Source of the DNA: Escherichia coli
Lineage (GTDB): Bacteria > Pseudomonadota > Gammaproteobacteria > Enterobacterales > Enterobacteriaceae
Reading direction: 5' to 3' (one strand)
Length of the DNA: 64,000 bases
Assembly: GCF_003018255.1 (NCBI RefSeq)
Contig: NZ_CP027440.1
Position numbers and translations under genes: made by a program. The notes beneath the pieces were generated by a model. It worked only from the letters and a program-made list of their open reading frames with translations, made no database searches and was not told the DNA's origin. Positions 16,169 to 53,179 of the stretch are shown one piece after another; the first letter of the stretch is position 1, and each line of letters opens with the position of its first letter.

Positions 16169-16378
16169 ATGAATAAAGATGAAGCCGGCGGTAACTGGAA
16201 ACAGTTTAAAGGTAAAGTGAAAGAGCAATGGGGCAAACTGACCGATGATGATATGACGATCATTGAAGGAAAACGTGATCAGTTAGTGGGTAAAATCCAG
16301 GAACGCTACGGTTATCAGAAAGATCAGGCAGAAAAAGAGGTTGATAGTTGGGAAAAACGCCATGATTACCGCTGGTAA
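16169..16378 (+). CDS. yjbJ: CsbD-family stress protein YjbJ
   Basis: ORF track 71 aa; ATG at 16169 (MNKDEAGGNWKQ) gives known 69 aa. Confidence 0.85.
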   Translation: MNKDEAGGNWKQFKGKVKEQWGKLTDDDMTIIEGKRDQLVGKIQERYGYQKDQAEKEVDSWEKRHDYRW

Positions 16379-16419
16379 TTAATCCCTCCTGCCCGACATG
16401 TACAAGGATGTACACCCTT

Positions 16420-30439: not shown

Positions 30440-30867
30440 CAAACAATTCCTCGGAAAAGAGCTGATGCCCTGGACAGCGCGGCGTTGTTCACGGGAGGCG
30501 TGATACACTCTGGCTATCGCGGGGCTTGCAGAACACAAAAATGAAACACTCTGTTTGTTTCATGAATTTTGTGAACTATATCACAATTGGTTGTTTGTTA
30601 GCCAGATTAGGCCGTGACTTTTATTGCCGTACAGATTATGTGTTTTTTCAGCGGCATTAAGGGTATATCTTCCCGCCGCCTCTGCATTCCTGAAGGTGAT
30701 TAATTTTTAAGATCAATGAATTATCGTCATCCTGGTGACGATTAAAAAGGTCTCAATTTTATATCAGGCAAAAGTGCTATTTATACCGTAAGATTTATCT
30801 AAAGACGTCGGTAGCCAGGGTTTCACCTTGCAATAACCGGGTATAAACAGGCAGGGAATTGATAGCA

Positions 30868-32454
30868 ATGAGTCATCGTGCACGACACCAATTACTGGCG
30901 TTTCCGGGCATTATCTTTTTAGTTCTCTTTCCCATCATTCTGTCGCTATGGATTGCCTTCTTTTGGGCAAAATCAGAAGTGAATAATCAGCTCCGAACCT
31001 TTGCTCAGCTGGCGTTGGATAAATCTGAGCTGGTCATTCGTCAGGCAGATTTAGTGAGCGATGCAGCTGAACGCTATCAGGGGCAAGTTTGCACTCCAGC
31101 CCATCAAAAGCGAATGTTGAATATTATTCGTGGCTATCTTTATATTAATGAATTGATTTATGCTCGTGATAACCATTTTTTATGCTCATCGCTGATAGCG
31201 TCTGTAAATGGCTATACGATTGCACCGGCCGATTATAAGCGTGAACCTAACGTTTCTATCTATTATTACCGTGATACGCCTTTTTTCTCTGGCTATAAAA
31301 TGACCTACATGCAGCGGGGAAATTATGTGGCGGTTATCAACCCTCTCTTCTGGAGTGAAGTGATGTCTGATGATCCGACATTGCAATGGGGAGTGTATGA
31401 TACGGTGACGAAAACCTTTTTCTCGTTAAGCAACGAGGCCTCGGCAGCAACGTTTTCTCCGCTGATTCATTTGAATGATTTAACCGTACAACGAAATGGC
31501 TATTTATATGCGACAGTTTATTCGACAAAACGCCCAATTGCAGCCATTGTTGCGACTTCATATCAACGTCTTATAACTCATTTTTATAATCATCTTATTT
31601 TTGCGTTGCCCGCCGGTATTTTGGGGAGTCTTGTTCTGCTATTACTCTGGCTACGTATTCGACAAAACTATTTGTCTCCCAAACGCAAATTGCAACGCGC
31701 CCTCGAAAAACATCAACTTTGCCTTTATTACCAGCCAATAATCGATATCAAAACAGAAAAATGTATCGGAGCTGAAGCATTGTTACGTTGGCCTGGTGAG
31801 CAGGGGCAAGTAATGAATCCGGCAGAGTTTATTCCGCTGGCAGAAAAGGAGGGGATGATCGAACAGATAACTGATTATGTTATTGATAATGTCTTCCGCG
31901 ATCTGGGCGTGTACCTGGCAACACATGTCGATCGCTATGTTTCTATTAACCTGTCGGCCTCCGATTTTCATACGTCACGGTTGATAGCGCGAACCAACCA
32001 GAAAACAGAGCAATATGCGGTGCGTCCGCAGCAAATTAAATTTGAAGTGACTGAACATGCATTTCTTGATGTCGACAAAATGACGCCGATTATTCTGGCT
32101 TTCCGCCAGGCTGGTTACGAAGTGGCAATTGATGATTTTGGTATTGGCTACTCTAACTTGCATAACCTTAAATCATTGAATGTCGATATTTTGAAAATCG
32201 ACAAATCGTTTGTTGAGACGCTGACCACCCATAAAACCAGTCATTTGATTGCGGAACATATCATCGAGCTGGCGCACAGTCTGGGGTTAAAAACGATCGC
32301 TGAAGGCGTCGAAACTGAGGAGCAGGTTAACTGGCTGCGCAAACGCGGCGTGCGCTATTGTCAGGGATGGTTCTTTGCGAAGGCGATGCCGCCGCAGGTG
32401 TTTATGCAATGGATGGAGCAATTACCCGCGCGGGAGTTAACGCGCGGGCAATAA
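30868..32454 (+). CDS. pdeC: c-di-GMP phosphodiesterase PdeC (CSS-motif sensor + EAL domain)
   Basis: ORF track 531 aa from TTG; ATG at 30868 gives 528 aa; C-terminal EAL-domain motifs. Confidence 0.88.
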
Positions 32455-32456
32455 AA

Positions 32457-32780
32457 CTACAGGCGGTGGCGATAATCGCTGGGAGTGCGATCAAACTGCC
32501 GACGGAAAACGCGGGAGAAGGTCTGCTGAGAGACATAACCCAGGTCCATTGCGATATCAAAAATCGGACGCTCGGTGGTGCGCAACTCAACGGCGGCCAG
32601 TAACAGGCGGCGTTGGCGAATGTAATCACCTAGTGTCTGATGCGTCACAGTACGGAACATCCGCTGTAAGTACCACTTTGAATAGCCTGATTTTTTTGCG
32701 ACGACATCAATGTTAAGCGGCTGGTCAATATGCTCGTCAATCCATGCGATAAGATCCTGAATAATTTTCTGATGGGACAT
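32457..32780 (-). CDS. soxS: AraC-family superoxide response activator SoxS
   Basis: 107 aa ORF recognised as SoxS. Confidence 0.95.
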   Translation of the reverse strand: MSHQKIIQDLIAWIDEHIDQPLNIDVVAKKSGYSKWYLQRMFRTVTHQTLGDYIRQRRLLLAAVELRTTERPIFDIAMDLGYVSQQTFSRVFRRQFDRTPSDYRHRL

Positions 32781-32865: not shown

Positions 32866-33330
32866 ATGGAAAAGAAATTACCCCGCATTAAAGCGCTGCT
32901 AACCCCCGGCGAAGTGGCAAAACGCAGCGGTGTGGCGGTATCGGCGCTGCATTTCTATGAAAGCAAAGGGTTGATTAGCAGTATCCGTAATAGTGGCAAT
33001 CAGCGGCGATATAAACGTGATGTGTTGCGATATGTCGCAATCATCAAAATTGCTCAGCGTATTGGCATTCCGCTGGCGACCATTCGTGAAGCATTTGGCG
33101 TGTTGCCCGAAGGGCATACATTAAGTGCGAAAGAGTGGAAACAGCTTTCGTCCCAATGGCGAGAAGAGTTGGATCGGCGCATTCATACCTTAGTGGCGCT
33201 GCGTGACGAGCTGGACGGATGTATTGGTTGTGGCTGCCTTTCGCGCAGTGATTGCCCATTGCGTAACCCGGGCGACCGCTTAGGAGAAGAAGGCACAGGC
33301 GCACGCTTGCTGGAAGATGAACAAAACTAA
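32866..33330 (+). CDS. soxR: MerR-family redox sensor SoxR ([2Fe-2S] cluster CIGCGC motif)
   Basis: 154 aa ORF recognised as SoxR. Confidence 0.95.
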
Positions 33331-33360
33331 AGCGCCACAAGGGCGCTTTAGTTTGTTTTC
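33329..33360. terminator. intrinsic terminator after soxR (AAAGCGCC-ACAA-GGGCGCTTT then T-rich)
   Basis: Inverted repeat overlapping soxR stop. Confidence 0.75.
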
Positions 33361-33470
33361 CGGTCTTTGTCTTTCTCTCTATCCCGCTGGTACACAGGAG
33401 GGTTTCCCCCGACGTCAACACACCTCATTCGAGCACGTGGTGGAGGTTCCGGTTGGTGTTGATGCTTTAA
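33330..33470 (-). ncRNA. possible RyjA-like small RNA locus (placement by synteny only)
   Basis: In K-12 as I recall, sRNA RyjA is encoded opposite to and just downstream of soxR; no sequence-level confirmation possible here. Confidence 0.3.
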
Positions 33471-39145: not shown

Positions 39146-39420
<275 letters not shown>

Positions 39421-49840: not shown

Positions 49841-50240
49841 GCCGGGGATATCCACCCGGCAATATGTGGATGCCTGATGCGACGCTTACCGCGTCTTATC
49901 AGGCCTACGCCAGACTGCGCAATAGCTTGATTTAGGGTGATTTTGTAGGTCGGATAAGGCGTTTACGCCGCATCCGACATCAATATCTGATGCGACGCTT
50001 GCCGCGTCTTATCAGGCCTACGCCAGACTGCGCAATAGCTTGATTTAGGGTGATTTTGTAGGTCGGATAAGGCGTTTACGCCGCATCCGACATCAATATC
50101 TGATGCGACGCTTACCGCGTCTTATCAGGCCTACGCCAGACTGCGCAATAGCCTGATTTAGCGTGATTTTGTAGGTCGGATAAGGCGTTTACGCCGCATC
50201 CGACATCAATGCCTGATGCGACGCTTACCGCGTCTTATCA
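49841..50240. repeat. BIME array: about 3.5 tandem 113-bp units of paired REP elements between gltP and yjcO
   Basis: TGATGCGACGCTT recurs at 49875, 49988, 50101, 50214. Confidence 0.92.
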
Positions 50241-50248
50241 GGCCTACC

Positions 50249-51031: not shown

Positions 51032-53179
51032 TTACGCCAGTGCCGCTTCGCGCAGGCGAGTTTTCAACTTGTTGTACTCGTCAATCACGTACTGCTCGGC
51101 GGCGCGCTGATCGGCGATCGGCTCGACGCGCACGGCGCAGTATTTGTATTCCGGCGTTTTCGTAATCGGGCTTAAGTTTTCGGTCACCAGCTCGTTACAG
51201 GCACCAATCCACCACTGGTAGGTCATGTAAATCGCCCCTTTGTTCGGACGATCGCTGACCTGCGCACGGGTGATAATTTTGCCTTTACGCGAGTGCACCC
51301 AAACCAATGCCTCATCTTCAATACCCAGACGTTTGGCGTCTTCGGTATTGATTTGTGCGTAGCCAGGTTCATCAGCCAGCGCCGCCAGTGCCGCACAGTT
51401 ACCGGTCATCGAACGGCAAGAGTAGTGACCAACTTCACGCACCGTTGACAGTACCATCGGGTATTCGTCGGTGAGTTTGTCGATTGGCGCTACCCAGTCG
51501 CAGGTGAAGAACTGCGCCAGACCGTTCGGGGTATCAAACTTCTCTTTAAACAGATAAGAAGTCCCCTGATCGGCATCTGAAGTATCGCGGCAAGGCCACT
51601 GAATGAAGCCCAGTTCGCCCATTTTCTCGTAAGTCGCACCGTAGAAATCCGGGCACAGATGACGCAACTCGTCCCAGATCTCCTGGGTGTTGTTGTAGTG
51701 CATCGGATAACCCATACGAGTGGCAATTTCACTGATGATTTGCCAGTCCGTTTTCAGATCCCACTTCGGCTCAACCGCCTTGAAGAAACGCTGGAAGCCA
51801 CGGTCAGCCGCAGTAAACACGCCTTCATGCTCGCCCCACGACGTTGACGGTAAAATGACATCCGCCGCCGACGCGGTTTTGGTCATAAAGATGTCCTGAA
51901 CGATAACCAGTTCCAGATCTTCAAAGGCTTTACGTACTGCCGACAGTTCCGCGTCAGTTTGCAGCGGATCTTCGCCCATAATGTACGCCGCTCTCACTTC
52001 ACCATGCGCCACGCGGTGCGGCAGCTCGCTGATGCGATAGCCGGTATGAGCAGGCAGGCTTTCCACGCCCCAGGCTTTGGCGAATTTCTCGCGGTTAGCC
52101 GGATCTTTCACGTACTGATAGCCCGGATACGTATCCGGCAGCGCGCCCATATCGCAGGCACCCTGCACGTTGTTCTGACCACGAACCGGGTTTACACCCG
52201 CATGTGGCTTACCGAGGTTACCGGTCAGCATCGCGAGGCTGGTCAGAGAACGCACGGTTTCCACGCCCTGATAGAACTGGGTTACCCCCATGCCCCACAG
52301 GATGGCGGCGCTTTCTGCCTGGGCATACATCCGCGCCGCCTGACGAATCTCACTGGCGCTGACGCCGGTGATATCTTCAACCGACTCCGGCGTGTAGCCT
52401 TCAACGATTTTACGATACTCTTCAAAGCCTTCTGTACGGGAAGCGACGAACGCTTTGTCGTACAGATTTTCTTCAATAATGACATGGCCCATCGCATTCA
52501 ACAGCGCGATGTTCGAGCCGTTTTTCAATGCAATGTGCATGTCAGCAATGCGCGCGGTTTCAATTTTACGCGGATCGCAGACGATAATTTTCGCCCCGTT
52601 ACGTTTAGCGTTAATTACGTGATTCGCCACGATTGGGTGGGAATCCGCCGGGTTATACCCGAAAACGAACACTAAATCGGTATTATCAATTTCGTTAATA
52701 GCATTGCTCATTGCGCCATTACCGACCGATTGGTGCAGACCTGCAACCGATGGGCCGTGTCAGACACGAGCGCAGCAGTCAACGTTATTGGTACCAATAA
52801 CGGCGCGCGCAAATTTTTGCATTACATAGTTGGTTTCGTTACCCGTACCGCGCGAGGAGCCGGTCGTCTGGATGGCATCCGGACCGTACTTCTCTTTGAT
52901 GGCGCTCAGGCGCTCGGCAACGTAATTCAGTGCCTCATCCCAGGAAACAGGTTCGAGTTTGCCGCCACGCTGGCGACGGATCATGGGGGTTTTCAGGCGC
53001 GGGGTCAGGATCTGGGTATCGTTAATGAAGTCCCAGCCATAATAACCCTTCAGACACAGGGTACCCTGGTTGGTTTTCCCCTGCGCTGCCTCCGCCCGGA
53101 CGATTTTGCCGTTATCGACGACCAGGTTGATTTTGCAACCTGATGCGCAATAGGGGCAAACCGTGACGACTTTTTTCAT
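51032..53179 (-). CDS. fdhF: formate dehydrogenase H (selenoprotein; in-frame UGA at 52760-52762 decoded as selenocysteine, codon 140)
   Basis: ORF track splits gene into 139 aa (52760..53179) and 559 aa (51032..52711) pieces in the same frame; combined 715 codons matches FdhF. Confidence 0.93.
52715..52759 (-). other. SECIS stem-loop directly 3' of the fdhF UGA codon (mRNA: CACGGCCCAUCGGUUGCAGGUCUGCACCAAUCGGUCGG)
   Basis: Sequence read on minus strand matches the bacterial fdhF SECIS hairpin as I recall it. Confidence 0.85.

Follow-up and report, generated by a model that had tools for sequence, protein, structure and literature searches.

A compact tail-to-tail junction of pdeC and soxS in Escherichia coli with a stem-loop embedded in the last codons of pdeC

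Overlapping bidirectional terminators of convergent genes were reportedly described by Ju, Li and Liu in 2019 using SEnd-seq. The pdeC-soxS junction of Escherichia coli resembles this class in having one hairpin element at the point where the two genes meet and an mRNA 3' end just beyond it. The junction differs from the class in lacking the symmetry of A-tract, hairpin and U-tract, with the U-run on the wrong side for both strands, and only the soxS end has been mapped. Convergent excludons are convergent pairs with an overlapping or embedded terminator, and pdeC-soxS is listed among them (PMC12288877). In that ExcludonFinder study (Sanmartin et al., NAR 2025), 165 convergent excludons are catalogued, every one of them seen in 50% or more of 58 MG1655 RNA-seq data sets, and 146 of the 165 have terminators located inside the neighbor's transcription unit. 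The class is defined by mutually exclusive expression and RNase III processing, whereas pdeC-soxS is known by its geometry and overlap, and the data from Klebsiella show co-induction. The terminator-like hairpin of pdeC-soxS is also located in the neighbor's coding sequence and not in a 3' UTR, and 2 bp separate the two genes, against an average of 95 nt among the excludons of E. coli (PMC12288877). The junction fits into this described class, in which the terminators of convergent pairs overlap or are embedded.

Two further systems are close in different ways. Transcripts terminated by Rho whose 3' ends are protected by a hairpin (Dar and Sorek 2018, PMC6061677) share with soxS a stable stem-loop without a U-tract, an end a few nt beyond the stem, and a C-rich, G-poor stretch downstream. 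That class is Rho-dependent, whereas a role of Rho at soxS is a prediction from sequence features. The second system lies on the other side of the same locus, where soxR and SraL (RyjA) are also convergent with overlapping 3' ends, sraL (33323-33463, minus strand) overlapping the last 8 nt of soxR. The soxR/sraL junction carries a textbook bidirectional terminator at 33324-33354, its 13 pairs being flanked by an A/T run on each side, and the pdeC/soxS junction has no such element. A consensus scan recovered the soxR/sraL site as the only strong terminator match near the pdeC-soxS junction.

The junction was analyzed in a window of 64,000 nucleotides of E. coli (contig NZ_CP027440.1, assembly GCF_003018255.1). 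The gene pdeC (yjcC; 30868..32454, plus strand) encodes a c-di-GMP phosphodiesterase of 528 aa according to the ORF list, the RefSeq annotation and Pfam, with a CSS-motif domain at aa 39-243 and an EAL domain at aa 273-505. Its coding sequence ends in GGG CAA TAA, with the stop TAA at 32452-32454. The gene soxS (32457..32780, minus strand) encodes the AraC-family activator of the superoxide response of 107 aa according to the ORF list, annotation, Pfam and alignment, with an HTH_18/AraC-type HTH domain at aa 28-106. Its stop codon is TAG, seen as cta on the plus strand at 32457-32459, in place of the TAA found in K-12 by alignment. The identities of both genes are confirmed by 100% identity to annotated E. 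coli, by the annotation of K-12 MG1655 and by the Pfam domains. The spacer between the two stops is the dinucleotide aa at 32455..32456, the same in K-12. The original prediction that the two genes converge with stops about 2 bp apart was borne out, as the gap is exactly 2 bp, tail to tail, both here and in the annotation of K-12 MG1655 (pdeC 4275471..4277057, soxS 4277060..4277383), where the layout is the same. Such a gap leaves soxS without room for a 3' UTR of its own in the spacer.

The 2-bp spacing is no chance oddity of the source strain. The RefSeq annotation of an identical E. coli genome gives the same boundaries for pdeC and soxS as in the window. The 1.5 kb around the junction shows 100% identity with several complete E. 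coli genomes and has a match in 5425 of 5426. The 101-nt junction itself was found in 5424 of the 5426 complete E. coli genomes, with at least 99% identity in 5084. Gaps of the 11 convergent pairs within the window are 2, 34, 41, 46, 82, 93, 98, 154, 165, 417 and 502 bp, so that pdeC-soxS is the tightest and a clear extreme.

Directly upstream of the pdeC stop lies a GC-rich inverted repeat at 32421..32452, identified by repeat search and folding and present in both transcripts, with 12-nt arms (32421-32432 and 32441-32452) that are 92% complementary and separated by an 8-nt loop. The hairpin covers the last 11 codons of pdeC (518-528) plus the first base of the stop, and it spans 10-41 nt beyond the soxS stop, within pdeC. 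The predicted folding energy of the RNA is -23.7 kcal/mol (z = -5.6) for the soxS strand and -18.9 kcal/mol (z = -4.0) for the pdeC strand, and on neither strand was any of 200 shuffled sequences equally stable. The codons involved fall into the PdeC tail beyond the EAL domain (aa 506-528; 32383..32451, plus strand), delimited by the end of the Pfam EAL match at aa 505 of 528 and by the tails of 69 orthologues, and thus outside any recognized domain. PdeC tolerates a Flag tag fused to its C-terminus on the chromosome (PMC5897775).

The hairpin only partly resembles a canonical intrinsic terminator. A GC-rich stem-loop is present, with a 12-bp stem at -23.7 kcal/mol. A consensus scan for a hairpin followed by a T-run was negative for canonical terminators on both strands of the junction, and neither the soxS-strand tail UGCUCCAU nor the pdeC-strand tail AAUAAAAC holds a U-tract of at least 5 T in the 8 positions directly past the stem. 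The flanks read GCAAUU-hairpin-AAUAAAA on the plus strand and UUUUAUU-hairpin-UGCUCC on the minus strand, so that the order of an upstream A-tract and a downstream U-tract is absent. On the soxS strand, the U-run (UUUUAUU) precedes the hairpin instead of coming after it, and the tail past the stem (UGCUCCA) is U-poor. Efficient canonical intrinsic termination of soxS is therefore unlikely. An Rfam search revealed no known RNA family at the pdeC-soxS junction, the only match near the soxRS locus being sraL beside soxR.

The 3' end of soxS and the transcript overlap are taken from the literature. In Supplementary Data 4 of a TRS study (Nat Commun 2023, PMC10687069), soxS has a "Primary" 3' terminus at 4277017 on the minus strand, with a 3' UTR length of 44. 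Applying an offset of 4244603 between K-12 and the window, set by equating K-12 4277060 with 32457, places this terminus at 32414, 7 nt beyond the hairpin's last paired base and 41 nt into the pdeC coding sequence. The resulting soxS 3' UTR (32414..32456, minus strand) comprises 43 nt, of which 2 nt are spacer and the other 41 nt run antisense to the last part of pdeC. The distance of 7 nt from the stem falls into the range of 7-9 nt of canonical intrinsic terminators. The terminus comes from a single TRS data set, recorded in LB, in which expression was low, with 0.1-0.7 read starts per position. A search for 3'-end data from paraquat-induced cells gave none. It was not called in the Term-seq data of Adams et al. 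2021, where the sole entry near the pair in the supplements is a 3' end at the soxS start codon. The SMRT-Cappable-seq supplements contain no 3' end of either gene, and no pdeC 3' end is given in the Adams 2021 Term-seq, TRS or SMRT-Cappable-seq supplements.

These observations support the original prediction in part and refine two of its statements. The statement that no terminator intervenes holds insofar as the 2-bp spacer has no room for one and the scan was negative on both strands, but it overlooked the strong, conserved stem-loop in the last 11 pdeC codons, right past which the soxS mRNA ends. Transcripts were also said to read into the opposing gene. Of the features of a convergent excludon, the tail-to-tail arrangement on opposite strands is directly observed, and the overlap has published support through the TRS terminus, 43-44 nt past the soxS stop and inside pdeC, and through the ExcludonFinder list. 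As the soxS mRNA ends right past the hairpin, the stable read-in of soxS is however short (~41 nt) and bounded rather than open-ended.

A comparison across the Enterobacteriaceae reveals how the junction has evolved. Scanning with SoxS, using one genome per species, yielded 80 loci, among which 69 have a pdeC orthologue converging on soxS and 11 have kept soxS without pdeC next to it. Of the 69 species that have the pair, 64 place the two stops no more than 16 bp apart, with gaps of 1-15 bp in 38 and overlaps of the coding sequences of 4-16 nt in 26. At one locus (L054), a distance of 308 reflects a frameshifted pdeC. The genera with overlapping coding sequences include Klebsiella, Raoultella, Trabulsiella, Yokenella and Pluralibacter, where PdeC ends in AEI* encoded antisense to the last soxS codons. 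Among the 69 orthologues, the PdeC tail past the conserved motif AKAMPPQEF is hypervariable between genera in both sequence and length.

The hairpin is kept at the same position in Escherichia, Salmonella, Citrobacter and Intestinirhabdus in an alignment of 24 sequences. In this alignment, 86.5% of cells are paired, compared with 33-50% if the partners are slid by 1-3 columns. Changes on both sides affect 4 of the 12 pairs, for example from U-A to C-G or from U-A to G-C. The covariation score was reached by none of 500 shuffles, controls that do not give true probabilities for related sequences. The hairpin is itself coding sequence, and part of its conservation could stem from protein constraint on the Pro-Ala...Gly-Gln codons.

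Lineages with a reduced or missing pdeC provide a natural experiment on which gene the hairpin serves. In Escherichia sp. MOD1-EC7003, pdeC is reduced to its last 29 codons with an in-frame stop, and in S. enterica subsp. arizonae to approximately the last 26 codons; the hairpin is present in both. In Intestinirhabdus alba, the hairpin is present and no pdeC remnant is detectable. The hairpin has thus outlived the loss of pdeC, which on these sequence comparisons assigns it to soxS rather than to PdeC. Both this persistence and the compensatory changes disfavor protein constraint as the origin of the conservation. A different stem-loop, antisense to the AMPPQEFMTWQQQ motif of PdeC, follows soxS at a short distance in Enterobacter and Lelliottia. 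Kluyvera and Pseudocitrobacter, without a pdeC at this place, have their own stem-loop shortly past soxS. The stem-loops past soxS in these other clades mostly lack a U-tract.

The probable explanation, and in our view the best available one, is a compact tail-to-tail junction where the coding sequence of pdeC harbors the signal for the soxS 3' end. Transcription of soxS would pass its own stop, cross the 2-bp spacer and enter the end of pdeC. The RNA would then fold the 12-bp GC-rich hairpin, and the stable mRNA would end 7 nt further, 41 nt inside pdeC. Given the missing proper U-tract past the stem, the hairpin is most likely a weak, non-canonical terminator or a pause site. It probably also serves as a protective 3' stem-loop. 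Longer soxS transcripts, halted by Rho within the C-rich stretch that follows, would be trimmed back to it by exonuclease. A candidate Rho-loading region is the soxS-strand RNA beyond the hairpin (32260..32420, minus strand), where the GC skew of the plus strand in 80-nt windows is +0.23 to +0.26, such that C exceeds G in the soxS-strand RNA. Hence, C-rich, G-poor and untranslated RNA as expected for Rho-dependent termination lies downstream of the mapped soxS end. We infer the mode of termination from these features, and in silico the U-poor tail and the C-rich stretch do not separate intrinsic termination, Rho-dependent termination and processing. On the protein side, the PdeC frame would run past the EAL domain through the soxS 3' UTR until the first stop. 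Such an extension would account for the hypervariability of the last ~20 residues and for the drift of the stop-to-stop distance.

The fate of pdeC transcription is likely different. On the pdeC strand, the hairpin lies in translated codons and is followed by AAUAAAA, so that it cannot be an intrinsic terminator for pdeC. With no terminator ahead of soxS, polymerases transcribing pdeC would have to proceed antisense into soxS, presumably for some distance. The region entered past the stop (32457..32620, plus strand), antisense to soxS, shows a plus-strand GC skew of +0.08 to +0.26 and is G-rich and probably a poor substrate for Rho. The consensus scan found no terminator-like site on the plus strand over 32457-32620. 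The pdeC and soxS mRNAs would consequently share a complementary segment of at least ~45 nt centered on the hairpin.

A regulatory reading, which takes up the antisense interference raised in the original prediction, would have the overlap selected because pdeC and soxS interfere with each other, as in an excludon with a regulatory role. Strong induction of soxS would produce RNA antisense to the end of pdeC, and RNase III cleavage of the duplex or collisions of polymerases would lead to less PdeC and more c-di-GMP under superoxide stress. In the reverse direction, read-through from pdeC would damp soxS. The complementary segment of 41-43 nt would form a duplex of 41-43 bp, a length sufficient for RNase III. 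The G-rich RNA past the pdeC stop, devoid of a terminator, could allow read-through to extend over soxS. The reported overlap in at least half of the 58 RNA-seq data sets (PMC12288877), the conservation of the junction in 64 of 69 species and the fact that PdeC is itself a redox-controlled enzyme (PMC5897775) speak for the same view. Our literature search found no experiment showing antisense interference between pdeC and soxS.

The expression of the two genes points in another direction. In K. pneumoniae, the yjcC (pdeC) promoter is inducible by paraquat in a SoxRS-dependent manner, as a promoter-lacZ fusion was induced and yjcC mRNA was lower in soxRS mutants (PMC3720812). Such co-induction, rather than reciprocal expression, argues against simple mutual exclusion. 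We considered whether the paraquat induction of yjcC in Klebsiella could be solely an artefact of soxS read-through in a non-strand-specific qRT-PCR, and rejected this given that the promoter-lacZ fusion was also induced. A MarA site upstream of pdeC in E. coli points the same way. The intergenic region between yjcB and pdeC contains a marbox, GCAATAAAAGTCACG (30613..30627, minus strand), as an exact match to the published site under a MarA ChIP-seq peak at yjcB<>yjcC in ETEC H10407 (PMC5684230). Expression of pdeC is weak, and the effect on induced soxS should be correspondingly small. As pdeC is sigma-S dependent (PMC5897775) and no pdeC 3' end was called in the searched data sets, pdeC is unlikely to affect induced soxS much. 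Furthermore, the loss of pdeC next to soxS in 11 of 80 species, with soxS kept, speaks against a selected partnership. Once the soxS hairpin is housed in a dispensable protein tail, nothing would select for an intergenic region, and this accounts for the tight spacing equally well. Overall, we regard selection of the overlap for interference as unlikely.

A selected regulatory link between superoxide stress and c-di-GMP through the overlap could take either of two forms, although we doubt that one exists. A burst of soxS RNA could pair with the last 41 nt of the pdeC mRNA, and cleavage by RNase III would generate non-stop pdeC messages and less PdeC. Alternatively, marbox-driven transcription of pdeC, under SoxS, MarA or Rob, could cross soxS antisense and act as a delayed negative feedback helping to shut the response off. 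The absence of a terminator and the poor Rho substrate ahead of pdeC transcription would permit such an antisense run across soxS.

A shared bidirectional terminator of the SEnd-seq type would imply that the hairpin stops or pauses polymerases from both directions, that head-on collisions release them, and that both mRNAs end flanking one stem-loop. The hairpin does form in both transcripts, at -23.7 and -18.9 kcal/mol, and the soxS end 7 nt past the stem fits the expectation. The collision model furthermore uses such hairpins as pause sites even if they do not terminate by themselves (bioRxiv 10.1101/2022.10.23.513370). The flanks, though, have the wrong polarity, with AAUAAAA past the hairpin on the plus strand and UUUUAUU before it on the minus strand. 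On the plus strand the hairpin also lies within translated codons up to the stop, and ribosomes will melt it. While the soxS end fits, the three searched 3'-end data sets contain no pdeC end. A shared terminator is thus improbable here.

The weakest reading, that the junction holds no functional element, the hairpin being a by-product of PdeC tail codons (its invariant core, GCCCGC/GCGGGC, falls on codons for Pro-Ala and Gly-Gln) and the soxS 3' end mapped in one low-coverage data set being a decay intermediate, is very improbable and was rejected, because four stem positions show compensatory changes in a tail that is otherwise not conserved as protein, the stem-loop survives pdeC deletion in three lineages, and lineages without pdeC have a different hairpin just past soxS.

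The close abutment of pdeC and soxS is real but ordinary and already known in its main parts. The arrangement is in the annotation of K-12 MG1655, the soxS end and the overlap are in published tables, and the pair is in the excludon catalogue. What is added here is modest, comprising the covariation of the hairpin, its location in the domain-free tail of PdeC, its persistence past deletions of pdeC, and the drift of the stop-to-stop distance from -16 to +15 bp across the Enterobacteriaceae. The junction clearly illustrates the over-printing of a terminator-like hairpin by a protein tail that is dispensable, and natural deletions show which gene is the owner.

The signal ending and probably stabilizing the soxS mRNA sits in pdeC codons 518-528, which calls for practical caution. 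In-frame pdeC deletions of the Keio design reportedly leave only the last six codons, and a deletion of this type would take away the hairpin's distal arm. A tag added to the C-terminus of PdeC ahead of the stop would increase the distance between hairpin and soxS. Either type of construct could alter soxS expression and thereby confound oxidative-stress or antibiotic-resistance phenotypes ascribed to PdeC. Assays of the pdeC 3' end that are not strand-specific also pick up induced soxS RNA. Were the overlap found to tie PdeC levels to the induction of SoxS, superoxide stress would be connected with biofilm signaling.

Two members of the 80 Enterobacteriaceae soxS loci (one genome per species) retain little of pdeC beside soxS. 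In Escherichia sp. MOD1-EC7003 (L003, 2827-2913) and Salmonella enterica subsp. arizonae (L006, 2830-2907), only the last ~26-29 pdeC codons are left and the rest is deleted. The remaining ~80-90 bp of pdeC adjoining soxS contain the GC-rich hairpin that lies just past the soxS stop. The stop itself (window 32457-32459) reads TAG in the present strain versus TAA in K-12 MG1655, and the neighboring hairpin does not differ between these two strains. The E. coli hairpin is absent from the Enterobacter/Lelliottia clade, which carries a different stem of 9-12 bp, UGCUGCUGCCAGG...CCUGCGGCGGCA, about 20-60 nt past the soxS stop (loci L022, L029-L033, L037-L039, L042, L047, L048, L051, L061, L068 and L070). 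This stem runs antisense to AMPPQEFMTWQQQ, a conserved motif of PdeC, and selection on RNA structure is not separable here from coding constraint.

At the opposite end of soxS, Term-seq data contain a strong 3' RNA end, scored 43001, at K-12 4277382 on the minus strand, equivalent to window 32779 (Adams et al. 2021). The position is base 2 of the soxS start codon, which implies an abundant short RNA consisting of the soxS 5' UTR alone, generated via premature termination or processing.

Upstream of pdeC, a marbox GCAATAAAAGTCACG (window 30613-30627, minus strand) exactly matches a site in ETEC H10407, where the sequence lies under a MarA ChIP-seq peak in the yjcB-yjcC (pdeC) interval (PMC5684230). 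Either pdeC or yjcB may belong to the Mar/Sox/Rob regulon.

Elsewhere in the window, Rfam naRNA4 (REP/BIME-type repeats) is matched eight times, with the hits grouped in the intergenic stretches that follow malF (3885-3955), lamB (8114-8184), acs/yjcH (39160-39412) and gltP (49948-50244). A SECIS element within fdhF (52713-52767, minus strand; RF01988, 87 bits) is expected, since this gene for formate dehydrogenase H has a selenocysteine codon. The genes yjbJ (+) and zur (-) also converge, with a gap of 41 bp (16376-16418), and the ExcludonFinder table that names pdeC-soxS lists them as a convergent excludon too (PMC12288877).

On the soxR side, the sRNA gene sraL (RyjA; 33323-33463, minus strand; Rfam RF01408, 153 bits) is convergent with soxR, and the two overlap across the final 8 nt of soxR. 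Both genes share a textbook bidirectional terminator hairpin of 13 pairs (33324-33354). The soxRS locus is therefore bordered by overlapping convergent transcripts on both flanks.
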